Positions 24,557 through 37,295 of a stretch of DNA of 64,000 nt are shown here, in pieces. The first letter of the stretch is position 1. Every line of letters starts with the position of its first letter. The notes below the pieces were generated by a model. The model searched no databases. It had not been told where the DNA came from and was given only the letters and a program-made list of their open reading frames with translations. The position numbers and the translations under genes were made by a program. This DNA comes from a virus, in the IMG/VR virus record IMGVR_UViG_3300043823_000198, positions 32,001 to 96,000 of that record; one strand, written 5' to 3'.

Positions 24557-27500
24557 ATGACAATAGATTTTAATACCCAACCGTATAACGACGACTATAA
24601 CGAAGACAACAGATATTATAGAATTCTCTATAAGCCATCGTATGCGGTTCAGGCTAGAGAACTAACTCAAATGCAGTCTATTCTTCAGAATCAGATTAAG
24701 CGTTTTGGGGATAATGTATTTAAACAAGGTGCGATGGTTATTCCTGGACAGGTTTCTGTTCAGACAATAACGCAACCAAATTCTGGTATCAATTACGTTA
24801 AACTACAATCATTAAACTCTAATGGTATTGCAGTTGAAACATTCCTATCATCATTAGTTGGTAAAACTATTGTTGGTCAAACTACAGGTGTTACTGCGCA
24901 AGTAACACAAGTCGCTCATGCTTCTGGTTCAGATCCATCTACAATTTATGTAAATTATACTGCATCTGGAACTAATAATAGCACAAGTATTTTTGCTGAT
25001 GGTGAAATTATCTCAACATCAGATTCTCTTTACACATTTAACGCATATGGAACCAGTGGTTCTGGATTAACAACTGCAACTGGTCTTGGTTCTGGTGCAA
25101 GTATTCAAAGGGGTGTTTATTACTTCAATGGCTACTTCTGTTTAGTTGAAGCTCAATCAATAATTCTTGACAAGTATGATAATACTCCTTCTAAAAAGAT
25201 TGGTTTAATTTGGAGTGAATCAATTGTTGATTCTAGCGAAGACGCTTCTTTGTTGGATAACGCCCAGAACTCATATAACTACGCAGCTCCAGGAGCTGAT
25301 CGTTATTTTATTGAACTTACTCTTGTTAGTTATAATTTAACTGATACAACTGACCCGTCATTTGTTGAGTTAATTCGTGTCACAAATGGTGCAATTTTTA
25401 CTTTAACAAATACCACTTCTTATAATGACCCTGCAGCGGCAATTGCTCAAGCGATCTATGATACAGAAGGTAACTATACTGTTAATCCATTTTTGCTTGA
25501 CATTCGCGAGGACAGAACAAACAATCGTGGAACTTGGGCTTCTAACACAGCGTATTTGATTGACGATATTGTAACTTACAATGGTAATACGTATGTTGCT
25601 CAAAATAGTGGAACATCAGTTTCAACTCCACCGACACAAACTAACGGAACTGCCTACGACGGTCCATCTAATACTGGTATCAACTGGTTATATAATGCAA
25701 ATCCTGCATATAACAACGGTATCAATGTTGGTGGCAGCGTAAACAATTTGGCTGTTGGTCTAGAGGCTGGTACAGCATTTGTTCAAGGTTATGAATTTAC
25801 TAAACTTGGAACAACATATCTAACAGTTCCAAAACCAAGAACAACAGTTCAATTAACAAATTTTGTTATTCCTGGCCCAGATGATGTTGGTAACTATGTG
25901 TTAGTTTCTAATCTTCATGGTCTTCCACCAATCAACGATGGTACGCATGCTCCTTATCAAACAATAAATTTGTATGATACAATTACTGGTGCGGCTCCAG
26001 GGTCTGCTCCTTCTGGTGGAACTTTGGTTGGTACTGCTCGTGTTCGTTATATTGAATTCCACAGCGGAGATGATCCTTTTGATTCAAGTACAGTATATAA
26101 ACTTGGATTATTCAACGTTCAGATGCTCCCTGGATATACATTCAATCAGAATGTTAAGTCTTTCTACTATGGAACATTTAGCTCTGATATCTCTCCAGTA
26201 ATAACACAACAAACTGGTTCAGCTACAACATCAGGAACTTCAGTTACTGGCTACGGAACATCTTTCCAAACAAACTTTGTTGTTGGCGATCTAATTGTTT
26301 TTAATATCGGTTCTTCTCAAGAATTTGGTAAAATTACTGCCATTAACAGTCAGACTTCTATTACTCTTGCAGCAGCATTAACGACTGCAGAATCAAGTCA
26401 AGTATCTATTGGACGTTGTACTACACAGATTCTTGAACCAAACAGTAATTCCCTAATATTCCCTCTTCCAAATTATGCCATTAATTCAGTAAGAACATCA
26501 ACAGGAACAATTAATGCAAATTATACTGTATATGAACAGTATACAGCAAATGCATCTGGAACTTCTGTAACATTTACAACTTCAAATGGAACATTTGAAT
26601 CATATGCTGGTGTTTCTAATTATGTGTTTTGTAATATTACCACTGGTGTAGTTTTTACCCCAGCTGCGAGTCAGGTTTCTATTTCTGGAACAAGTTTAAC
26701 TGTTTCTAGTTTGACATCTGGACAGGCTGTTTCCGGAAACGTAATAAGTGTTATTGCTGGAGTTACTCGTTCAGGAACTGGTAACGAGAAAACCAAAACT
26801 CTTGTTACAACAACAGTTGTAATTAACTCGCAAGCGCAGGCTCAGGGTAATATTGTTACTCTTCCAAATGCTGACTTGTTTAAAGTAATAAGCATTAGAC
26901 AAGCAGATGGACAGGCATGGGGTTCTACACCAACATCATCTCAGTGGGTTACAGATATTTCTGAAAATTATACTGTTAATAATGGTCAAACAAATGAGTA
27001 CTATGGATTGGCATCATTAGTATTGAACCCTTCATATAACGTACCAACTGCCCCTATTCAAGTAACATACCAATATTTTACTCATGGTCAGGGTGACTAC
27101 TTTACTGTTAACTCATATAACAGTATTGCTTATACAGATATTCCACCAACCCTAAGAGATTCTCTAGATTTTAGACCACGTGTAGCTGACTATTCAGCAG
27201 GAACAGCACCAAACTTTAGTAGTTCTGGTTCTTCTTTTACAACTACACCGAAACGTGGTGTTTACTTTACCGCTGACTACAGTTATTATCTTGGTAGAAC
27301 TGATGCTATTGTTATAGACATTAATGGTAATTTCAGCGATATACAAGGTGTTGCTTCCCTTCAACCAGCAGCCCCATCTATCCCAACAAATTCAATGGGA
27401 TTATACTCATTGAGTTTGGAACCATATGTATTTGGAACAAGTTCAAGTAGTATTGTTCCAACGACTATATCATCTAGAAGATATACAATGTCTGATATTG

Positions 27501-30500
27501 CTAAATTGGATACTCGTATCTCCAATTTAGAATATTACACATCATTGTCAATGCTTGAACAATCAACACAATCTCTTACAACTACAGACAGTACTGGTCT
27601 GAACAGATTTAAAAATGGTTTCGCTGTTGATAATTTTTCTGGTCAAAATGGTCTCGGTAACCCAACTGATCCAGATTACCTATGTTCAATTGATTCACAG
27701 AACGGAATTCTACGTCCATTCTACTCAATGGACAACGTAAACCTTATTGAATTAAATTCAAATACAGCACAAAGAACTGCTTCTAATTATCAGGTTACTG
27801 GTGATATTATTACATTACCATATACAACTGCTCCTTTTATCACACAGAGCGTTGCATCTGAATTAGAAAATATCAACCCATTTGCTGTGTATACATTCTT
27901 GGGTTCTGTTAATCTAAATCCACCATCAGATGATTGGTTTGAAACAACTTCTTTACCAGACATTGTTAACAATGTAATGGGTAATTACAACTCAATTCTT
28001 GCAGCTTTCCAGGCAGCAAATATTGTTGGCGCTAACGGAGTTGGTACTGTTTGGAACGCATGGCAAACTATTTGGAGTGGCGCATCAACTATCACTGGTG
28101 TTAATGTAACATCTGGTAATACCATTTACTCTGCATATTCTCAATTAACTACTGGTATTCTTAACGGAACTATCACAAACGGAAGTAATTTCAGTGCCAA
28201 TCCTGGTGTTACAAGCACAGCTCAACATGGTTGGAGTATCGATGCTGGACAATATACTGCAAATGTAACTACAGCTACTCAGGTTGGACAAACTAGAACT
28301 GGTGTTGCATATAGTGTGCAGAGCGAAACTGATTATCAAACAGTTGGAACAAGCGTAGTTTCAACTGCTGTTATTCCTTATATCCGTTCAAGAAATGTTT
28401 TGGTTCAGGTTAAGGGATTAAAACCGCTGACACAAGTTTATCCATATTTTGATAGTGTTTCTGTTGCTTCTTACTGCACACCTTCTGTTAAGATGGTTTA
28501 TACACTATCATCAGGATCATTTGATTGTACTACAAATGCTGGAGCTCAGGCTTCTGCTTCAGCAAGACAAATTGCTGGTGATTCTCAGGTATGTTTAAAT
28601 ATTGGTGATGTTATAACAGGTACTGTTTCTGGTGCAACTGCTGTTGTAATTAATAAGTATACTGATTATTCAACAAGCGCATTATATCTAGAACTTGCAA
28701 ATGTAATTGGAACATTCAACGCCAACGAAACTATTACTGGTTCTATCAGTAGCGCAGTTGGTGCCGTAGTTTCTGTTACTATTCCAAGTAATAATAATCT
28801 AGTAACAAATAAACTCGGTGAATTAAACTTCTTATTTGATATTCCAAATAATTCATCATTACAGTTTAGAACTGGAACTCGCACGTTTACTCTATTAGAT
28901 ACTAATACGTTTACTGGTGATTATACAACAAAAGCATCTGGTACATATGAAGCCACTGGTATTCTAAACACAACACAAACTACTATTAATGCTGTTCAAA
29001 ATGCTAATGTAGTTCAGGAACAGGTTACTGATAATCAAACTGTCTATCAAACAAGCACTAATACTATAACAGCAAATGGTTGGTATGACCCTCTTGCAGA
29101 GTCTTTTTATGTGTCTTCAACTGGTGGAGCTTTCCTAACATCAATTGATATTTACTTTGCTTCTAAAGATTCAAATGTTCCTGTAACATTACAAATTAGA
29201 AACATGGTAAATGGAAATCCTGGTTCTTTAATTCTTCCATTCTCTGAAGTAACATTGACACCTGATCAGGTTAATATTTCTTCTAACGATGTTGTAATTG
29301 CAGATGGTTCGTCATGGCCAACATTTGATACACCTACTACATTTACTTTTGAAACACCAGTATATGTTCAAGATCAAACTGAATATTGTTTCGTTTTAAA
29401 ATCTGATTCTAATGGATATAATGTTTGGGTTTCAAACATGGGAGATTTAATCCCAGGAACTGATACATATGTAACTGAACAACCATATGCAGGTGTTATG
29501 TTCTTGTCTCAGAATGCGTCAACATGGACACCAGATCAAAATCGAGATATTAAATTTACTATTAATCGTGCAGTATTTAACACTAGCGTTGTTGGTAACG
29601 TTGAATTTACTAATGATATTATTCCTTTAGACGTTTTAGAAAACAATCCTTTCCAAACTAATGTTGGTTCAACTACTGTTCGTATATGGCATCCTGCGCA
29701 TAATATGCCAGCGAACTCAACAGTTAAGATTGATGGGTTTAATGCTGCCAATAATATTACTGGAACAATTACAACTTCTTCTACATCATCAACTGTTACA
29801 GGAACAGGAACTGCATTTAGTACTCAACTTGTAGTTGGTTCATGTTTATATGATGATAACATGAATCTAATTGGTCAGGTTGCTTCTATTTCATCTAACA
29901 CATCTTTGACATTGACTGCAAATGCAACAGAAGCATTAACTGGTTATCAACCAAATTATATTAATCCGATCAGCGGAATTCCTGCCTCTCAGATAATCGG
30001 GACACATATAATTTCTAATGTATTATTCGATGCTTACACAATTACTGTTTCAACTGCAGCTACTGTTGCTGGTTATCAGGGTGGCGCTGGCTGGAGAGCT
30101 TCCAAGAATGTACAGTTTGATGTTCTCAATCCAACAATTCAAATGCAAACATTCCCACAATGTACTACTAGCTTCTCAGCTAAGACTACTAGTGGCCAAT
30201 CTATCAATGGTTCTGAGACACCATATATTACAAGCAGCACATTTAACCCATGCATAATTGGTAACAATAATAGTTACTATTCTCCACAGATGATCGCTTC
30301 TTCTGTTAATGAAGCAGCGAATCTAAGTGGTAACAAGTCCTTGACATTCTCTGCCACAATGCAGACTAGCATTGATACTGTTTCTCCAGTAATCGATACT
30401 ACTCGTGCAAGTTTAATCTGTATCAATAATGCGATTAACAAACCAACAGAGTCTAACACTGACTTGGCTGCTCTTGATGTTATCTCTGTATTCAGTGGAT

Positions 30501-31144
30501 CTACTGGTGCATTTAACCTAAGTGGTTCTACTATTACATCTACTAACTACGCTGTTCGCGCAGCAATGGCAACCATTACTCCAGGCAGCTATATAACTAT
30601 ATCAAGCGCAACAAATGCTGGTAATGATATTACTGTAATGGTAACTGGTTATTCTGATACCAACCCAGGAATCTTTACTTCTGGCTCCACTGGAACTGGT
30701 ACTCTAACAGTGAATGGTTCATTCATTAGCGAGTCTACTTCTCCAGCAACAGTTTCTCTGCGTCAATTGTTTGTTGATGAAACTGGACCAAGTGGTAGCT
30801 CATCAATTAGTAAGTATGTGACACAACCAATTAAATTGGCAGCAGCTTCTACATACACTAAGGTTATGTTCTCTGCAAATATTCCTATTGCAGCTAACGT
30901 ACTGGTATATTATAAGACTTGCGTTGGAGACTCTTCTCAGTTGGCAACAACTGATTATGTGTTAATGACACCAGATTCTAATATTCCATACAAACAAGTC
31001 GGAGATCTATCGTTTAGTGATATTACTTACACTGTATCAAATGGTGTTCCATATGATACAATTACCATTAAACTTGTTATGAATTCAACTTCTAGTTCTC
31101 AAATTCCGTTAATTAAGGATTTCAGGGTAATTTCTTGTGCATAA
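24557..31144 (+). CDS. Large virion structural protein (DUF4815/VrlC-like)
   Basis: PYNDDY, VQARELTQMQS, APGADR, LEYYTSLS.LE, RFKNGF.VDNF, NPFAV, DPLAESF. Confidence 0.88.
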   Translation: MTIDFNTQPYNDDYNEDNRYYRILYKPSYAVQARELTQMQSILQNQIKRFGDNVFKQGAMVIPGQVSVQTITQPNSGINYVKLQSLNSNGIAVETFLSSLVGKTIVGQTTGVTAQVTQVAHASGSDPSTIYVNYTASGTNNSTSIFADGEIISTSDSLYTFNAYGTSGSGLTTATGLGSGASIQRGVYYFNGYFCLVEAQSIILDKYDNTPSKKIGLIWSESIVDSSEDASLLDNAQNSYNYAAPGADRYFIELTLVSYNLTDTTDPSFVELIRVTNGAIFTLTNTTSYNDPAAAIAQAIYDTEGNYTVNPFLLDIREDRTNNRGTWASNTAYLIDDIVTYNGNTYVAQNSGTSVSTPPTQTNGTAYDGPSNTGINWLYNANPAYNNGINVGGSVNNLAVGLEAGTAFVQGYEFTKLGTTYLTVPKPRTTVQLTNFVIPGPDDVGNYVLVSNLHGLPPINDGTHAPYQTINLYDTITGAAPGSAPSGGTLVGTARVRYIEFHSGDDPFDSSTVYKLGLFNVQMLPGYTFNQNVKSFYYGTFSSDISPVITQQTGSATTSGTSVTGYGTSFQTNFVVGDLIVFNIGSSQEFGKITAINSQTSITLAAALTTAESSQVSIGRCTTQILEPNSNSLIFPLPNYAINSVRTSTGTINANYTVYEQYTANASGTSVTFTTSNGTFESYAGVSNYVFCNITTGVVFTPAASQVSISGTSLTVSSLTSGQAVSGNVISVIAGVTRSGTGNEKTKTLVTTTVVINSQAQAQGNIVTLPNADLFKVISIRQADGQAWGSTPTSSQWVTDISENYTVNNGQTNEYYGLASLVLNPSYNVPTAPIQVTYQYFTHGQGDYFTVNSYNSIAYTDIPPTLRDSLDFRPRVADYSAGTAPNFSSSGSSFTTTPKRGVYFTADYSYYLGRTDAIVIDINGNFSDIQGVASLQPAAPSIPTNSMGLYSLSLEPYVFGTSSSSIVPTTISSRRYTMSDIAKLDTRISNLEYYTSLSMLEQSTQSLTTTDSTGLNRFKNGFAVDNFSGQNGLGNPTDPDYLCSIDSQNGILRPFYSMDNVNLIELNSNTAQRTASNYQVTGDIITLPYTTAPFITQSVASELENINPFAVYTFLGSVNLNPPSDDWFETTSLPDIVNNVMGNYNSILAAFQAANIVGANGVGTVWNAWQTIWSGASTITGVNVTSGNTIYSAYSQLTTGILNGTITNGSNFSANPGVTSTAQHGWSIDAGQYTANVTTATQVGQTRTGVAYSVQSETDYQTVGTSVVSTAVIPYIRSRNVLVQVKGLKPLTQVYPYFDSVSVASYCTPSVKMVYTLSSGSFDCTTNAGAQASASARQIAGDSQVCLNIGDVITGTVSGATAVVINKYTDYSTSALYLELANVIGTFNANETITGSISSAVGAVVSVTIPSNNNLVTNKLGELNFLFDIPNNSSLQFRTGTRTFTLLDTNTFTGDYTTKASGTYEATGILNTTQTTINAVQNANVVQEQVTDNQTVYQTSTNTITANGWYDPLAESFYVSSTGGAFLTSIDIYFASKDSNVPVTLQIRNMVNGNPGSLILPFSEVTLTPDQVNISSNDVVIADGSSWPTFDTPTTFTFETPVYVQDQTEYCFVLKSDSNGYNVWVSNMGDLIPGTDTYVTEQPYAGVMFLSQNASTWTPDQNRDIKFTINRAVFNTSVVGNVEFTNDIIPLDVLENNPFQTNVGSTTVRIWHPAHNMPANSTVKIDGFNAANNITGTITTSSTSSTVTGTGTAFSTQLVVGSCLYDDNMNLIGQVASISSNTSLTLTANATEALTGYQPNYINPISGIPASQIIGTHIISNVLFDAYTITVSTAATVAGYQGGAGWRASKNVQFDVLNPTIQMQTFPQCTTSFSAKTTSGQSINGSETPYITSSTFNPCIIGNNNSYYSPQMIASSVNEAANLSGNKSLTFSATMQTSIDTVSPVIDTTRASLICINNAINKPTESNTDLAALDVISVFSGSTGAFNLSGSTITSTNYAVRAAMATITPGSYITISSATNAGNDITVMVTGYSDTNPGIFTSGSTGTGTLTVNGSFISESTSPATVSLRQLFVDETGPSGSSSISKYVTQPIKLAAASTYTKVMFSANIPIAANVLVYYKTCVGDSSQLATTDYVLMTPDSNIPYKQVGDLSFSDITYTVSNGVPYDTITIKLVMNSTSSSQIPLIKDFRVISCA

Positions 31145-31376
31145 TAGATACTTGAAAGTCAGAGGATATGAGGGTCTTGTTAGAGACACCTCCTCTGGTG
31201 CTATTATAAATACAAATACAGCTGAACTGCAGAATTATTTACGCCAAAGAGAGTTGGCGGAACAAAAAGATCTTCAAATTTCTAAACAATCTGAAGACAT
31301 AAATAATATGAAAGAAGAAATTCAGGAAATAAAATCGTTGATTTATCAACTATTGGACACTAAGGGTAACAAATGA
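31137..31376 (+). CDS. Small coiled-coil phage protein
   Basis: GTG start overlapping previous stop; LVRDTSSGAIINTN plus coiled coil; contains TATAAATA at 31205-12. Confidence 0.75.
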   Translation: MHNRYLKVRGYEGLVRDTSSGAIINTNTAELQNYLRQRELAEQKDLQISKQSEDINNMKEEIQEIKSLIYQLLDTKGNK

Positions 31377-32608
31377 CAACATATACAGTAGGTGCACCAA
31401 CTCTGGTTTTAAGAGCTTCCAAAGGAAGTCCACTATTAAACTCAGAAGTTGATGCTAACTTTACCAATTTAAGTAATGCGGTACAAACATCTCTATTGGC
31501 AAGCACTTATACTGCTGCAGATGTTCTTTCTAAATTAAACTCTGTCACTGCATATAACCAATCTTCTGGTTTAAATGCTGACACTTTAACTTGGAATGGT
31601 GGCAATAGAGCTGCAAGTAGCGCCAATACAGCAAATACAATTGTTGCAAGAGATGGTAATGGAGCATTTACTGCCACTACTATTAACGCAACTACATTCA
31701 ATGGAACATTCTCTGGAACTGCTGCAATTACTTCTGGTTCTATCGCTTTAAGTACTGCCTTGGCAATTACTTCTGGTGGTACTGGAGCTACTTCTGCTTC
31801 TGCCGCAAGAACTAACCTTGGATTGGCGATTGGTTCAAACGTAGAAGCATGGAGCGCTAACTTAGATGCGCTTTCTGGAGTTTCTTCTTCTGCAAACGTA
31901 CTTCCATATTTTACTGGTGTGGGAACTGCATCTGTTACATCGTTCCCATCATACGCTCAATCTCTTGTAGGGTCTAGTTCTGCATCAGCTGCTCAGTCTA
32001 CTCTTGGTTTAGTTATTGGTACCAACGTTCAGGCTTATTCATCAAATTTGGCGGCAACATCTAGTGTTTCTTCTGGTATTATCGCAATGCAAGGAACAGG
32101 ATCTGCTTCTGGTGTAACAATCACGGCTGGCTCTGGTATCTCTGTTTCTAACGGTAACGGTGTTGGTGGTAACCCAACTATTTCTGCAGCTGTTACATCT
32201 GTTCAGGGTATGACTGGCGCAGTTTCTGTTTCTGTTCCTGTTACTTCTGTTCAGGGTATGACTGGAAATTTGACAGTTACTAATATTTCTGGTAGTGCTG
32301 GATACGCATCTTCAGCTGGATACGCATCTTCAGCTGGATACGCATCTTCAGCTGGTGGTGGATGGCCAGGTGCGTTATCATCATTCCATAATAACTTGGG
32401 TAACTATGGTGGATGGGTTCCGCATGGAAATAAGGGAACTGGCAACAACCCTAGCAATGCATGGGGGCGTAACGCTGGAGCATATAATCATGGTCATATT
32501 CCTGGTTCTCACCACTCATATAACTGTCACAATCAAATGCATTTAGACACAGGTCAAGGATTGGATCACTATCACCATTTCATTAATTGCAGAAATTGTA
32601 ACTGCTAA
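31373..32608 (+). CDS. Tail fibre-like protein with His/Cys-rich C-terminal tip
   Basis: KGSPL..EVDANF head, GGTGA..AARTNLGL and VTSVQGMTG fibre repeats; ends HYHHFINCRNCNC. Confidence 0.8.
   Translation: MTTYTVGAPTLVLRASKGSPLLNSEVDANFTNLSNAVQTSLLASTYTAADVLSKLNSVTAYNQSSGLNADTLTWNGGNRAASSANTANTIVARDGNGAFTATTINATTFNGTFSGTAAITSGSIALSTALAITSGGTGATSASAARTNLGLAIGSNVEAWSANLDALSGVSSSANVLPYFTGVGTASVTSFPSYAQSLVGSSSASAAQSTLGLVIGTNVQAYSSNLAATSSVSSGIIAMQGTGSASGVTITAGSGISVSNGNGVGGNPTISAAVTSVQGMTGAVSVSVPVTSVQGMTGNLTVTNISGSAGYASSAGYASSAGYASSAGGGWPGALSSFHNNLGNYGGWVPHGNKGTGNNPSNAWGRNAGAYNHGHIPGSHHSYNCHNQMHLDTGQGLDHYHHFINCRNCNC
32297..32350 (+). repeat. Perfect 18-nt tandem repeat x3 (AGYASS)
   Basis: GCTGGATACGCATCTTCA three times. 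Confidence 0.97.
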
Positions 32609-32618
32609 GGAATAATAA

Positions 32619-33551
32619 ATGTCAATAAAATATGTAACCCAGAAAGTTGACCCATTAAGATTATCGTATCCAGGTAGATATGGAACACAGTCGTTTGTTT
32701 CTCAATCGTATGTCGATCAAACCACAGATCCAACATCAACATTTGAAGCTCAACTTAATACACCACAAGCGCAAAGAAAAACGACAACATCGAATTGGCA
32801 TACTACTCCAATTCAATTTGAGTATAAATTTGATACTGTTGATGCAAATAACATTCAAGTTACATTCACAAATGTAACTGAGAATAAAATATTTTTCACA
32901 TATATTATTAATTTTACTCAAACTCTTCTAAATACATTTGTTGCACAGACAGTTTATGGAGTAGCAACAGAGTATCATGCAGAAAATAATGGCAAAACAG
33001 AAGTTGTAAGTCCTGGAGATATTGTTAATTATTCTGATACTACATTTTCAACCAAAGATGAAGCGCCACATTTTGTTGGTAAATCTATTGTAAAATTCTT
33101 TTGCACAAAAAATAATCCAACAATCAATGATTTGATTTTTATGGTTTATGCTCCAGTGGCACCAAATGATCCTTCTGCGCCAAATACATATGGCGCACAA
33201 AATGTAGATCCAACATGGGCGCCACATACTATAACAGTCGATGGAACTGCAATTGATTCGACTTCTTTCGTAAAAGAAATTGCTTCTATTAAAGATTTAT
33301 TATATCCAATCACAACTTCTTACACTACTTCTGGAAATGTTATTACAGTTAATGTTACAACAAATCCAGCAATTACAGAAGTATATTTAAGTTCTACTGT
33401 TGGATATATTGCTAAGACTGTAGTTCCAATAACAAATGGAACTGGAACATTCAATGTTGTTACTACTGGCTTAAATTCTGGTGATGTTGTTAATGTTAAA
33501 ATTGGTTATAAATATTGGAGTAACGTAGTTACTTTTAATACAACAATCTAA
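32619..33551 (+). CDS. Hypothetical protein with beta-rich/Ig-like C-terminus
   Basis: AAGGA SD; 310 aa; C-terminal VYLSSTVGYIAKTVVPITNGTGTF..GLNSGDVVNVKIG. Confidence 0.75.
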   Translation: MSIKYVTQKVDPLRLSYPGRYGTQSFVSQSYVDQTTDPTSTFEAQLNTPQAQRKTTTSNWHTTPIQFEYKFDTVDANNIQVTFTNVTENKIFFTYIINFTQTLLNTFVAQTVYGVATEYHAENNGKTEVVSPGDIVNYSDTTFSTKDEAPHFVGKSIVKFFCTKNNPTINDLIFMVYAPVAPNDPSAPNTYGAQNVDPTWAPHTITVDGTAIDSTSFVKEIASIKDLLYPITTSYTTSGNVITVNVTTNPAITEVYLSSTVGYIAKTVVPITNGTGTFNVVTTGLNSGDVVNVKIGYKYWSNVVTFNTTI

Positions 33552-33571: not shown

Positions 33572-34963
33572 ATGGCGAAATTTGTTATAACTGTAAAACA
33601 CCCTGAAAAAGATGAACTTAAAAAAGTAGTATACGACAGCTCCATCAGTACCTTAACATGGGAAGATGGAACTCCTGTTGTAGAAAATACTCTTACTCAA
33701 GTAGAAGTTCAAAACCCTGCTAAAATTGAAAATGGAAAGAAAGACCTAAAGACTGTAAAAATACAGCTAGGTCTTTCATGCAATTTTGAATGCGATTATT
33801 GTAATCAGAGATTCGTACCTCATGCAGATTCAACTAATCCAGAAGACGTTCAGCCGTTCGTTGATAATATGTCTTCATGGTTTCCAGGTGGGAGGGATGG
33901 TTTAGGCAATGGTACTAAAATTGAATTTTGGGGAGGAGAACCATTAGTTTATTGGAAAACTCTAAAACCATTGGCAGAAGCATTAAGAGAAAAATATCCA
34001 AATGCAATTTTTGGTATAGTAACAAATGGTAGTTTGTTAGATTCAGAAAAAAATGCATGGTTAGACAGACTTGGTTTTGGAGTCGCAGTTTCTCATGATG
34101 GTCCAGGTCAATTTGTTCGAGGACCAGACCCTCTACTAGACGAATTATCAAAATCTGGAATTATTGAATTATATAAAATTCTTGCGCCTAAAGATAGGTT
34201 TACATTTAATTCTATGATCAACTCTAAAAATATTAGTAGAGCTGATATTGAACAGTTTTTTGTAAAATTTGTATCAGAAAATATCGGAGAAGAATATCTT
34301 GAATATTTAATAATTGGAGAGGGCGGTTTCGTTGATGCTTATGACGAAGGTGGAATGGCTAATTCTTTATTAGACGAAGAAGAAGATATTCGATATCGAA
34401 ATATTGCATTAAATGATCTTCGTTCTGGAAATGTAAAACGATTTGAAGTTATACAAAGCAAATATCATGAGTTTGCTAATACAATTATGAATGGTATTCG
34501 AATAGAATCAGTTCCACAAAAATGTGGTATGGACAAATCTAATCAGATGGCAGTTGATCTAAATGGTAATGTTCTGACATGTCAGAACGTCAGTGCTGTT
34601 TCTAATAATCCAGCAGGAGTTTCACATAAAATTGGACATGTTTCTGATTTATCTTCTGTAGAATTAAAGACAGCCACTCATTGGAGCGATAGAAGCGAAT
34701 GCCCAAACTGCCCAGTAGTTCATATATGCAAAGGAGCATGTATGTTTCTCAGTGGTGATCTTTGGGAAGCGAGTTGTAACAATGCGTTTAGCGACAATAT
34801 TTTAATATTCACTCTTGCTATTGAAGATGCTACAGGTGGTTGGATTCCAGGATATATTGATGGTCCATTAAGGGAAGATAGAAAAGATATCTACTGGTGG
34901 ATCAACGGTAAGCCAGAAAAAACACGAAAAGCAAAGAAATTTATTCCTATAATGGCGGTTTAA
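33572..34963 (+). CDS. Radical SAM enzyme with SPASM domain
   Basis: CNFECDYC, WGGEP, TNG, SHDG; SPASM C-x18-C ... CPNCPVVHICKGAC ... C. Confidence 0.95.
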   Translation: MAKFVITVKHPEKDELKKVVYDSSISTLTWEDGTPVVENTLTQVEVQNPAKIENGKKDLKTVKIQLGLSCNFECDYCNQRFVPHADSTNPEDVQPFVDNMSSWFPGGRDGLGNGTKIEFWGGEPLVYWKTLKPLAEALREKYPNAIFGIVTNGSLLDSEKNAWLDRLGFGVAVSHDGPGQFVRGPDPLLDELSKSGIIELYKILAPKDRFTFNSMINSKNISRADIEQFFVKFVSENIGEEYLEYLIIGEGGFVDAYDEGGMANSLLDEEEDIRYRNIALNDLRSGNVKRFEVIQSKYHEFANTIMNGIRIESVPQKCGMDKSNQMAVDLNGNVLTCQNVSAVSNNPAGVSHKIGHVSDLSSVELKTATHWSDRSECPNCPVVHICKGACMFLSGDLWEASCNNAFSDNILIFTLAIEDATGGWIPGYIDGPLREDRKDIYWWINGKPEKTRKAKKFIPIMAV

Positions 34964-34964
34964 T

Positions 34965-35234
34965 ATGAGTTACATTGACGGATATTTGGTTGAGATAAAT
35001 CAGTTTCCAAGATTTGGAGAAAGGTTTACAATAAAAAGTTATTTCTATTACAACTCAAATACAAAAGAATATGGTTACAGGGATACAGTTATCCCAAAAG
35101 AACAAATTATAAATAATGATGATATGACGGAAGAATTAGTTGCAAACATTATAAATAATAATATACCTGCAATGAGAAGGGTCATTGACCCAATAAATTT
35201 AACAGAAAGTTGGATTTTTGAGCCAACAGCATAA
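34965..35234 (+). CDS. Hypothetical protein
   Basis: 89 aa, starts 1 nt after the rSAM stop. Confidence 0.65.
   Translation: MSYIDGYLVEINQFPRFGERFTIKSYFYYNSNTKEYGYRDTVIPKEQIINNDDMTEELVANIINNNIPAMRRVIDPINLTESWIFEPTA
35108..35157 (+). promoter_or_regulatory. Two perfect TATAAATA late promoter motifs upstream of dctP-like gene
   Basis: TATAAATA at 35108-15 and 35150-57. Confidence 0.55.
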
Positions 35235-35244
35235 GGAAAACAAA

Positions 35245-36192
35245 ATGAATTCTAAACATGTAAAATGGGTTATTGCTCACGAACCTATTGGTTTGTTTTT
35301 AAAAGTAGCCGAACATTTTGCTAAAGAAGTTAACGAAAAAACCAACGGTATGTTTAATATCGAAGTTCTTTCATTGTCTGATTATACAGCAAAATACAAT
35401 GATGGCAAAGCAATTACCAAGTATGATCTAATGGAATTGATCAATACTGGTAAGATCGAAATGAGTCACATCTATACCACTTGGCTTGGCGATTATAACA
35501 AAGATCTACATGCTTTAGATCTACCATTCCTATTCCGCGACCATGCTCATGCTGACGCTGTTTTAGAAGGTGAGGTTGGTGCTGAGTTATTAGCTGGCGT
35601 TTCTAAGAATAGCAATATCCATGCTATGTCTTTCACTTACTCTGGTGGTTATCGTGTTGTTCCAGCGAACTTCCGTGCTGACACTGTTGAGTCATGGAAA
35701 GGTCAAGCTGTTCGTACTTCTCGTTCTCCAGTTGCTGTTGAAACATTCAAGCTACTTGGCGCTGAACCAAAAGAGAACATCGCTCTAGAAGAAATGAACG
35801 AATTTGCCGATCGTGGCGAAATCGCTGCTGGTGAATCAACATACGTTCGTATTTTCCCACTCGATCAATATAAGTCGTTCAAGGTTGTTAATGACACTGC
35901 TCACAGCTTGTTCTTAACTTCTATTATTGTTAACAAAGATTTCATGGCTCAATTCGATAAGCAGACTCAAGAGATTATGGCTCAGGCTGCATTTAATGCT
36001 GCTCGTGCTGAACGTCGCGAATCTGTTGCTGATATTCCTAACATTCTTGCTGAATGTAAAGAGAAGGGTGTTGAAGTTGTTCGTATGAATGAAACCGAAG
36101 AGAAGAAATTTAAAGAGATTACTTCTAAGGTTTATGATGTCTTCGCTGATTATTTTACACCTGGACTTGTGCATAAGATCCAATTACATTAA
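35245..36192 (+). CDS. dctP: TRAP transporter substrate-binding protein (DctP family), no signal peptide
   Basis: FAKEVNEKTNG..IEV, LDLPFLFRD..HA..VLEGEVG..LL, GYR, VR, LGA.P; start reset to ATG 35245 after AAGGA. Confidence 0.9.
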   Translation: MNSKHVKWVIAHEPIGLFLKVAEHFAKEVNEKTNGMFNIEVLSLSDYTAKYNDGKAITKYDLMELINTGKIEMSHIYTTWLGDYNKDLHALDLPFLFRDHAHADAVLEGEVGAELLAGVSKNSNIHAMSFTYSGGYRVVPANFRADTVESWKGQAVRTSRSPVAVETFKLLGAEPKENIALEEMNEFADRGEIAAGESTYVRIFPLDQYKSFKVVNDTAHSLFLTSIIVNKDFMAQFDKQTQEIMAQAAFNAARAERRESVADIPNILAECKEKGVEVVRMNETEEKKFKEITSKVYDVFADYFTPGLVHKIQLH

Positions 36193-36209
36193 TCTGAATG
36201 ATGATAAAT

Positions 36210-36233
36210 AAAGGGAGCTTCGGCTCCCTTTTT
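36210..36233 (+). terminator. Intrinsic terminator with C(UUCG)G loop
   Basis: AAAGGGAGC-TTCG-GCTCCCTTTTT. Confidence 0.9.
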
Positions 36234-36248
36234 ATTTTGAGGAAAATT

Positions 36249-37295
36249 ATGGAACAAGATTTTAAAGAATCAATTTTATACTATGATAAGAAGAATGTGT
36301 CTAATTTTGCGCAAAACGATTATACAAAAATTTATAGATTTTTGAATCCAATCACGGATTATAAAGTTTTTCACACATATCTAAGACTTGGTTTAATGGA
36401 ACACAATGCTGTTTATGATAGGAGTGGAGAAATCCCACACTTTCTTAATATGGCAGAAGATTTACATCCATTACCAAAACACATAGAAGGTTATAACAAA
36501 TCTTTTTATGAAGTCGCAGAAAATAGAGCAAAAGAACTACTAGCGTTAAATCAACCGATTAATGTTATGTGGTCTGGTGGTCTTGATAGCACATTCGCAT
36601 TGTTCATGTTACGTAAATTTGCAAACGACAAAGATCAAGTTCGAGTATATGGAACATATAACTCTATCATTGAATCTGGCGACATGTTCGACCGTGTCAT
36701 TAAAGATAATTTCAAATACGAGATATCAACTGCAACACGCAACGACTTAAATTTAAATTCTGAAGGAATTTACGTTAGTGGTATGTGTGGTAATCAATTG
36801 TTTGGTCCAACAGATGATATGTTTGGTAATAATATGTTATTTCATCATACACTTGGAACACCTGAAACAATTTATGAATCATATGAAAAAAATATTGATC
36901 CAGAGTTACTTGAATTTTTATATCCAGCAATTAAGGTTAGCCCAAGAAAAATTGAAACAGTTGCAGATTTAAGATGGTATTGTATATTTAATTTAGACTG
37001 GTATACAGCAATATACGAACATAAAATTTTATTACCAAAAGAAAAAGCTGAGAAAATTTATGGATTTTTTGATTCTATTGAGTTTCAGGAATGGGCTGCT
37101 AACACAAAAGAACCTTTTACAAAAGTGCAAGGAGATCCAAATACTCATCGCTGGCAAATGAGAGAGATTCTTAGTGATATTTTTGGTGAAGTTGAATATG
37201 CAAAAAATAAAGAAAAGAAAATCTCTAATTTTTCAATAACTGAACCAGGCTGGATTGCGCTTTTAGAAGATTATCGAAATGTTTTTATCGATTAA
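36249..37295 (+). CDS. PP-loop ATP pyrophosphatase, asparagine-synthetase C-domain-like
   Basis: MWSGGLDS PP-loop; VSGMCGNQLFG resembles the AsnB SGEGADELFG motif; no glutaminase domain; start reset to ATG 36249 after GAGGA. Confidence 0.75.
   Translation: MEQDFKESILYYDKKNVSNFAQNDYTKIYRFLNPITDYKVFHTYLRLGLMEHNAVYDRSGEIPHFLNMAEDLHPLPKHIEGYNKSFYEVAENRAKELLALNQPINVMWSGGLDSTFALFMLRKFANDKDQVRVYGTYNSIIESGDMFDRVIKDNFKYEISTATRNDLNLNSEGIYVSGMCGNQLFGPTDDMFGNNMLFHHTLGTPETIYESYEKNIDPELLEFLYPAIKVSPRKIETVADLRWYCIFNLDWYTAIYEHKILLPKEKAEKIYGFFDSIEFQEWAANTKEPFTKVQGDPNTHRWQMREILSDIFGEVEYAKNKEKKISNFSITEPGWIALLEDYRNVFID

Follow-up and report, generated by a model that had tools for sequence, protein, structure and literature searches.

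An invariant Asn-Cys tail on the fibre tip of a T4-like phage as the probable target of a neighbouring radical-SAM/SPASM enzyme

Radical S-adenosylmethionine (rSAM) maturases with a SPASM domain are known for small secreted peptides, and SPASM enzymes acting on Cys-rich substrates form thioethers. Here, a 64,000-nucleotide stretch of viral DNA (the window; positions 32,001 to 96,000 of IMG/VR virus record IMGVR_UViG_3300043823_000198, a 165.6-kb genome rated complete) was analysed, in which a predicted tail fibre of 411 amino acids (aa) ends in an Asn-Cys repeat. An rSAM/SPASM enzyme encoded two genes downstream probably acts on this repeat or, failing that, recognises it.

Among described systems, the streptococcal NxxcB/NxxcA pair, a RaS-RiPP (RiPP, a peptide made by the ribosome and modified after its translation), is likened to this locus by substrate motif and gene layout, not by enzyme sequence; in both, an rSAM/SPASM enzyme adjoins a substrate with repeated Asn and Cys. 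NxxcB links the Cys sulfur to the beta-carbon of the Asn three residues upstream, and Ala, Gln and Asp are tolerated as acceptors (PMC9389541), a set that matches the residues found before Cys here (Asn at 68-83%, then Asp and Ala). The systems differ in that the substrate here is the C-terminus of a predicted 411-aa virion protein rather than a short leader-core peptide, and in that the phage locus has an immunoglobulin (Ig)-like partner and no quorum-sensing context. Compared with ranthipeptides and NxxC RiPPs as a class, the tail has repeated Cys with a fixed N-x-x-C acceptor, whereas membership of a characterised thioether family and a short leader-core precursor are both lacking; tailed versions of only 87-176 aa are found in other phages. 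PapB/freyrasin and CteB/SCIFF, which gave the best NCBIfam and PDB-sequence matches, respectively, have Cys-rich substrates that are cross-linked many times, although the scores are far below the cut-offs and the substrate motifs are of other kinds (CX3D, and six Cys in 45), whereas the enzyme here sits in a phage structural module.

Another point of comparison is the long-tail-fibre needle of T4 gp37, in which HxH motifs hold Fe on the trimer axis and which is not known to have a dedicated rSAM enzyme. The tip described here is likewise the C-terminal, receptor-side tip of a T4-like fibre, with His clusters and one HGH; however, no sequence relation to gp37 is detectable, and its His positions swap with Tyr, Cys or Asn in relatives. 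The repeated HxH of gp37 was not found, only HGH (373-375) and HYH (399-401), and in an alignment of 26 tips column 375 holds Asn, Gln or Ser in 23, column 399 holds Pro in 14 and column 401 holds His or Tyr. In the host-recognition cluster of pelagimyophages, tail fibres and rSAM cassettes are located downstream of VrlC (PMC7029224). The arrangement resembles the window in that a giant VrlC/DUF4815 protein is followed by fibres and that 'cassettes related to radical SAM proteins' are variable, but that work leaves the cassettes uninterpreted and does not connect the rSAM genes with a fibre C-terminus or a Cys motif. No description of rSAM-modified fibre tips was found in the literature searched, with subscription journals outside its coverage.

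The Asn-Cys tail of the fibre tip

The record is a T4-like myovirus, encoding gp5-, gp6- and gp7-like baseplate proteins, sheath, portal and scaffold, with a portal nearest to those of Methylophilales phage Melnitz (56%) and cyanomyoviruses. The 411-aa protein matches the PHROG tail-fibre families phrog_11303 and phrog_24210, and its residues 146-222 match annotated tail fibres of Caulobacter, Rhizobium and Puniceispirillum phages by tblastn; because of these matches, together with its position in the tail/baseplate module, the protein is identified from its sequence as a tail fibre. The first-pass annotation of this DNA had reported that all His and Cys of the fibre are confined to its last 73 residues and that each Cys follows Asn, and this composition was confirmed: the 11 His are at positions 339, 351, 373, 375, 380, 381, 386, 390, 399, 401 and 402, Asn stands directly before each of the four Cys (385, 406, 409 and 411), and residues 1-338 contain neither His nor Cys. 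The motifs seen in the tip are HGH, HH, HYHH, NCH and a terminal NCRNCNC. Under random placement, the chance of all 15 His and Cys falling within the last 73 of 411 residues is p ~5.5e-12, and that of Cys following Asn in four of four cases is p ~1e-3 even at the 19% Asn of the tip. None of the other open reading frames (ORFs) of the genome has such a tail.

Conservation of the NC motif had been set beforehand as the decisive check. In the 26 aligned tips, N405, C406, N408, C409, N410 and C411 are invariant (26/26), as compared with a mean column identity of 47% over the tip alignment, and the family-wide constant of the fibre tips is a terminal N-C-x-N-C-N-C. A second, nearly invariant motif lies at the entry to the tip (Table 1); it is also repeated in the unrelated long fibre-like proteins P0004, P0009, P0011 and P0012, and is therefore, as judged from these sequences, a generic fibre element. 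The 45-55 residues separating the entry motif from the tail are variable. An exhaustive HMMER search with the tip returned only a handful of true relatives, and mining of loci gave many more. Structure predictions of the tip were of low confidence: the AlphaFold2 (AF2) monomer, made with the 26 sequences, has a predicted local distance difference test score (pLDDT) of 42.9, and when the last 120 residues were predicted as a trimer together with three Zn, interface scores (ipSAE) were 0.00-0.01 and the partner pLDDT was <50.

His richness is, on the aligned sequences, a trait of the sub-lineage and not of the family. Homologous fibres have anywhere between 0 and 16 His, tips of the L026 type being His-free, for example, and the median number within the last 60 aa is 1. 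His alternates with Tyr in columns 390 and 400-402, and at H375, H380, H381, H386 and H399 relatives have mostly Asn, Ile, Pro or gaps. The HGH column is Cys or Asn in 21/26 relatives, at residue 373 five tips have His and the other 21 have Cys, and H351 is retained in 21 of the 26. The His-rich segment is read as a lineage-specific variable surface that may bind metal and that lies outside the conserved system.

Association of the tail with a radical-SAM/SPASM enzyme

The gene two positions downstream of the fibre is assigned by its motifs as a full SPASM rSAM enzyme. Both the CX3CX2C motif (C70-x3-C74-x2-C77) and the SPASM array (C318, G332-x4-C337, C377, C380, C386, C390 and C402) are invariant in 14 diverse homologues; the TIGR04085 SPASM model matched at 32.3 bits (cut-off 27), and PF04055 matched at 2.3e-06 and 28.3 bits, slightly under the Pfam cut-off of 29.5. 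The nearest named families are peptide maturases, with PapB (NF047865, 7.8e-16) as the top NCBIfam match and CteB (5WGG) among three PDB sequence matches. As these best named relatives are peptide maturases, all scoring far under their family cut-offs, the enzyme is placed by sequence in the RiPP-maturase branch and in no characterised family. Identity as an anaerobic sulfatase-maturating enzyme (anSME), the label carried by the homologue in phage JWF, was rejected (TIGR03942, 33.3 bits against a cut-off of 349; structure 4K37, E 0.0098). The fibre, partner and rSAM genes lie on one strand with gaps of 10 nucleotides (nt; fibre to partner) and 20 nt (partner to rSAM), and no terminator-like site was found from the fibre stop to the rSAM gene.

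A scan of IMG/VR with the rSAM sequence gave 39 loci at 59-83% identity. Nearly all of the 39, and every one with enough upstream DNA, have an (NC)n-tailed protein, after which come a partner homologue and the rSAM enzyme. In every T4-like clade locus with enough upstream DNA the order is a VrlC-like protein, a small structural protein, a fibre of 364-442 aa with an (NC)n end, then the partner homologue and finally the rSAM enzyme, with NCxNCNCNC, NCNCVCNC and CNCNCNCNC among the tail variants. The one seeming exception, locus L042 (2799-6998), contains three tandem ORFs of 86-87 aa, each ending in NCNCNC, followed by two partner-like genes, three 2-oxoglutarate (2OG)-Fe(II) oxygenase genes and then the rSAM gene. 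A 2OG-Fe(II) oxygenase gene also adjoins the rSAM gene in locus L004, and the oxygenases of these two loci might hydroxylate Asn or Asp.

The pairing is also present in cultured phages. In Ralstonia phage RSP15, the end of gp048 ('side tail fiber') reads ...NC...NCQCGN, and this protein is followed by a partner homologue (gp047) and an rSAM enzyme (gp045) at 46% identity. In the fibre gp028 of Achromobacter phage JWF (L006:3670-5121), the run NCNCDCNCNC is immediately succeeded by a Hint autoprocessing domain (Hom_end_hint, 3e-12), with the rSAM gene (gp030) two genes on. A Hint domain directly after the (NC)n run was also found in L195 (near 3850) and L216 (near 4708), and in all three proteins the first residue of the domain is Cys (C-F-P-x-x-T...M-A-D-G). 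After cleavage by Hint, which may proceed via a thioester intermediate, the mature protein would end in the Asn-Cys run; these fusions suggest that the tail must be, or become, a free C-terminus.

In bacteria, a scan of one genome per prokaryote species gave 239 rSAM relatives, mostly from freshwater Burkholderiales, and the count was made on the 47 retained loci for which all 6 kb of upstream DNA was available and which were not chosen by motif. A same-strand ORF with an (X-Cys)n end was found 0.05-3.7 kb before the rSAM gene in 46 of these 47 loci; two of the 46 are fused to Hint, and in one an acidic extension comes after the tail. In the bacterial loci, 68% of tail Cys follow Asn, the next most frequent preceding residues being Cys, Asp and Ala, and 43/53 tails end in Cys.

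The association was also examined in the other direction, by scanning IMG/VR for the DNA pattern of NCNCNC followed by the stop TRA (tails ended by TAG being outside the sample), which returned at least 118 stretches. Among the matches listed, ~42 of 49 ORFs of at least 90 aa ending in NCNCNC have this rSAM enzyme in the locus, usually with a partner homologue; ~14 further NCNCNC ORFs with <1.5 kb of downstream DNA were left out of this count, and the short ORF matches of the scan are due to chance.

The proteins that carry the tail are diverse. Small carriers of 127-176 aa have 14-18 Cys in their last 60 residues, and Asn precedes nearly all of these Cys (N-C-x-N-C, NCNCNC...); the carrier in P0003/L004 has a different N-terminus. 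No significant similarity beyond the tail was found between the window fibre and RSP15 gp048, JWF gp028 or the small 87-176-aa proteins. Gene order varies, with the rSAM gene before or after the partner (L058/L067) and, in L130, upstream of the tailed protein, and rSAM identity falls to 38-46%. The tail-rSAM pairing is repeated in at least five unrelated carrier architectures. The tail motif, its conservation and its two-way association with the enzyme gene across unrelated carriers are direct observations; because these carriers share nothing significant beyond the tail, tail and enzyme are seen, at the level of sequence, to stay paired even as the remainder of the carrier changes. The module so delineated, in which a fibre protein with an (X-Cys)n tail is joined by an Ig-like partner and an rSAM/SPASM enzyme, is widespread in phages and prophages of many lineages.

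Proposed cross-linking of the tail and alternative explanations

Action of the enzyme on the tail, and the chemistry of that action, are inferred by analogy with NxxcB, PapB and CteB, on which radical thioether cross-linking of the tail Cys would be the most likely mechanism. A tail Cys thiolate would bind an auxiliary Fe-S cluster of the SPASM domain, and the 5'-deoxyadenosyl radical would take a hydrogen from a neighbouring residue, for which the Asn C-beta is the natural candidate because NCNC contains N-x-x-C; a thioether would then form, and the reaction would repeat along the tail. This spacing is present in the window tail as N408-x-x-C411, and the longer (NC)n tails of relatives contain overlapping N-x-x-C. 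The fibre would thereby end in a rigid, redox-inert knot held by cross-links, which might also staple the three chains together, and the Ig-like partner would act either as an adaptor or chaperone for cross-linking or as a distal adhesin docking on the matured tail. A more specific version, in which inter-chain thioethers lock the three tip subunits, the partner is the substrate adaptor and the His and Cys particular to this lineage add a metal site, is possible but doubtful; if true, this would be the first virion protein cross-linked enzymatically by radical chemistry, with a RiPP pathway re-used for a virus particle.

Several points weigh against the tail being the target of the enzyme. Every step of the mechanism is drawn by analogy, and the window tail is the shortest of the family (three Cys), with a single N-x-x-C. 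The PapB match is at 58.2 bits against a cut-off of 340, the other characterised families score lower and are also far below their cut-offs, and the best solved relative of the enzyme is 8VPO (E 3e-8), a cyclopropylglycine synthase; the entry is cited in PMC10878394, which deals with radical-SAM cyclopropyl synthases. A RiPP recognition element was looked for and not detected. Within the T4-like clade, common descent accounts for much of the co-occurrence, and locus L174, the remaining one of the 47 bacterial loci, has the rSAM gene and no tail within 6 kb. Conversely, seven ORFs ending in NCNCNC, among the matches listed, are without the rSAM gene in the locus; these belong to three small protein families of 185-203 aa (L118, L059 and L139; L062, L127, L150 and L100; L106), and for L118 no rSAM gene was found in the whole record, a genome rated 100% complete. 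Because these three families end in NCNCNC without this rSAM enzyme, the tail alone is not fully diagnostic.

CxCxC and His clusters are classic ligand patterns, and metallothionein uses CxC. A tip without enzymatic cross-links, in which the alternating Cys (and, in this lineage, the His) face the trimer axis and hold Zn, Fe, Cu or an Fe-S-like cluster and the rSAM enzyme serves otherwise, would fit these patterns, as would the retention of H351 and the exchange of His for Cys at residue 373, which is typical of metal ligands. However, this explanation is improbable, as the His are unconserved from fibre to fibre, columns 390 and 400-402 swap between His and Tyr, the residues at H375, H380, H381, H386 and H399 are mostly non-ligands in relatives, and the company of the rSAM gene in 46/47 bacterial loci and in ~42/49 of the NCNCNC matches listed is left unexplained; a metal needle would be at most a lineage-specific addition. 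The first-pass annotation had combined both ideas, reading the tip as a metal-loaded needle of the HxH type and its Cys motif as an rSAM substrate. The substrate part is supported by the conserved NC positions, the co-occurrence of the enzyme across carriers and the NxxC spacing, whereas a needle as the essence of the tip is not supported, given the variation in His number (0-16) and the column swaps, and its further suggestion of mimicry of a metal complex at a TonB-type uptake receptor found no support.

It is similarly unlikely that the enzyme acts on the tip by other chemistry or at another site, with (NC)n serving only as a docking handle (a 'follower' peptide). Candidate reactions would be an aromatic-to-aliphatic cyclophane link in the His/Tyr/Trp-rich segment, conversion of Cys to formylglycine, or epimerisation, and the NCBIfam cyclophane formers DynA, YhhB and FxsB, as well as anSME, do score in the same weak range as the thioether formers, the anSME structure 4K37 does match, and aromatic residues directly precede the tail in most window-type tips. 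The segment ahead of the tail is hypervariable, however, with some tips being His-free and having few aromatics; only the Cys and the residue before it are conserved, and the tip sequence contains no sulfatase motif (C/S-x-P/A-x-R). The least probable explanation is that the synteny has no enzyme-substrate meaning and that the rSAM enzyme, riding in the host-recognition cluster, modifies the partner, a nucleotide or a host component. 'Radical SAM cassettes' are indeed among the accessory genes that come and go in the host-recognition clusters of pelagimyophages (PMC7029224), and phages carry other rSAM enzymes with unrelated roles, the matches in Erwinia, Cronobacter and Campylobacter phages being confined to the rSAM core. 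Against this, the association outlives changes of carrier, gene order (L058/L067, L130) and host phylum, and the optional DctP cassette described below comes and goes while tail, partner and rSAM enzyme stay together.

If the tail is the target of the enzyme, as is favoured here, an enzyme class known from peptide maturation appears dedicated to a viral structural protein, at the end that usually meets the host, which suggests that phages cross-link fibre tips as bacteria mature peptide antibiotics. If this is confirmed, phage assembly would gain a new type of post-translational chemistry, a gene trio that is unannotated yet very common (aquatic T4-like phages, prophages of Burkholderiales and the cultured phages RSP15 and JWF) would be explained, and a natural system for stapling protein termini would be at hand.

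The partner protein and the surrounding genes

The features of the locus are collected in Table 1. The AF2 model of the partner has a pLDDT of 87.8 and a predicted template modelling score (pTM) of 0.85, and in VIA-align its residues 229-310 are modelled as an Ig-like Big domain (Z 9.5 to intimin). A wide VIA-align search with the partner returned only the generic Ig/Big fold at 229-310, leaving the first 228 residues unmatched, and a Foldseek search of the PDB with the model gave no match at E <=0.001. Pfam and NCBIfam searches with the fibre, the partner, the 89-aa ORF and the small NC-tailed proteins yielded no family assignment, and blastn of the fibre-to-rSAM stretch against phage records gave no match. 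The partner gene always lies between the fibre and rSAM genes or directly after the rSAM gene, and it is the fastest-evolving gene of the block, with 47% identity to its closest relative (L007:4626-5588), as compared with 76-83% for fibre, rSAM and VrlC in the same pair. In locus L043 the fibre shaft is kept (79%) but the tip is of a different type; this change and the 47% identity of the partner point, at the sequence level, to mosaic exchange of tip and partner. For host-range prediction, tip and partner are the fast-evolving parts of the module.

Table 1 Features of the fibre locus in the window, and the small carriers of the tail in other loci
Feature	Position	Strand	Basis
VrlC-like giant structural protein, 2195 aa, DUF4815, ahead of the host-recognition cluster	24557..31144	+	PF16075, 1.1e-47; phrog_358
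Virion structural protein, 79 aa, just 5' of the fibre	31137..31376	+	phrog_473 at 4.8e-20; syntenic in clade
Tail-fibre gene, 411 aa: Ser/Ala/Gly/Thr-rich shaft and His/Cys tip	31373..32608	+	PHROG matches, tblastn, position in T4-like baseplate/fibre block
Tip entry motif L-S-x-F-x-N-x-L-G-N-Y-G-G-W, residues 335-348	32375..32416	+	Nearly invariant, 26 tips
His/Cys-rich tip, residues 339-411	32387..32608	+	Translates exactly to the last 73 residues and stop
Terminal Asn-Cys tail N-C-R-N-C-N-C, residues 405-411, presumed rSAM target	32585..32605	+	Invariant N/C columns, 26/26 tips
Partner, 310 aa: N-terminal domain and C-terminal Ig-like (Big/intimin-like) domain, residues 229-310	32619..33551	+	AF2, VIA-align
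Radical-SAM/SPASM enzyme, 463 aa, CX3CX2C and seven-Cys SPASM array	33572..34963	+	phrog_1802, 9.5e-66; TIGR04085; invariant Cys
Optional cassette: 89-aa ORF, DctP-like binding protein (35218-36192), 365-aa protein (36198-37295)	34965..37295	+	Pfam, synteny
TATAAATA copies in the block	31205, 33507, 35108, 35150, 37316	+	Ahead of fibre, rSAM, DctP and 110-aa ORF starts
Small carriers, 127-176 aa	L058:4364-4891; L067:3129-3530 (-); L128; L152		rSAM 35-79 nt downstream, partner after rSAM

In the fibre, the hexapeptide G-Y-A-S-S-A is repeated three times in tandem (32297-32350, residues ~309-326) in the linker joining the shaft repeats to the tip, and its copy number differs among relatives. The T4 late-promoter type sequence TATAAATA occurs seven times in the window, as compared with 7.06 expected by chance; all copies are on the + strand, and five are shortly 5' of gene starts within 31.2-37.3 kb, a placement that is no more than suggestive of late promoters.

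The optional cassette downstream of the rSAM gene was found in about two thirds of related loci, with ~10 loci that are without it keeping tail, partner and rSAM enzyme; in L034 it sits between the partner and the rSAM gene. The DctP protein matches its Pfam family at 1.2e-40, the domain match starting at residue 29, and a strong terminator lies 3' of its gene at 36210-36231. Assignment of the 365-aa protein as an AsnB-like PP-loop enzyme rested on faint matches (asparagine synthase, E 0.06) and was not confirmed. A functional link of the cassette to His-rich tips was also discarded, as all very His-rich tips have the cassette and so do His-free ones. Outside the window, at genome positions 129388-135461, three other ORFs contain 73-aa stretches with 13-15 His and Cys, and these probably encode metal or Fe-S enzymes.

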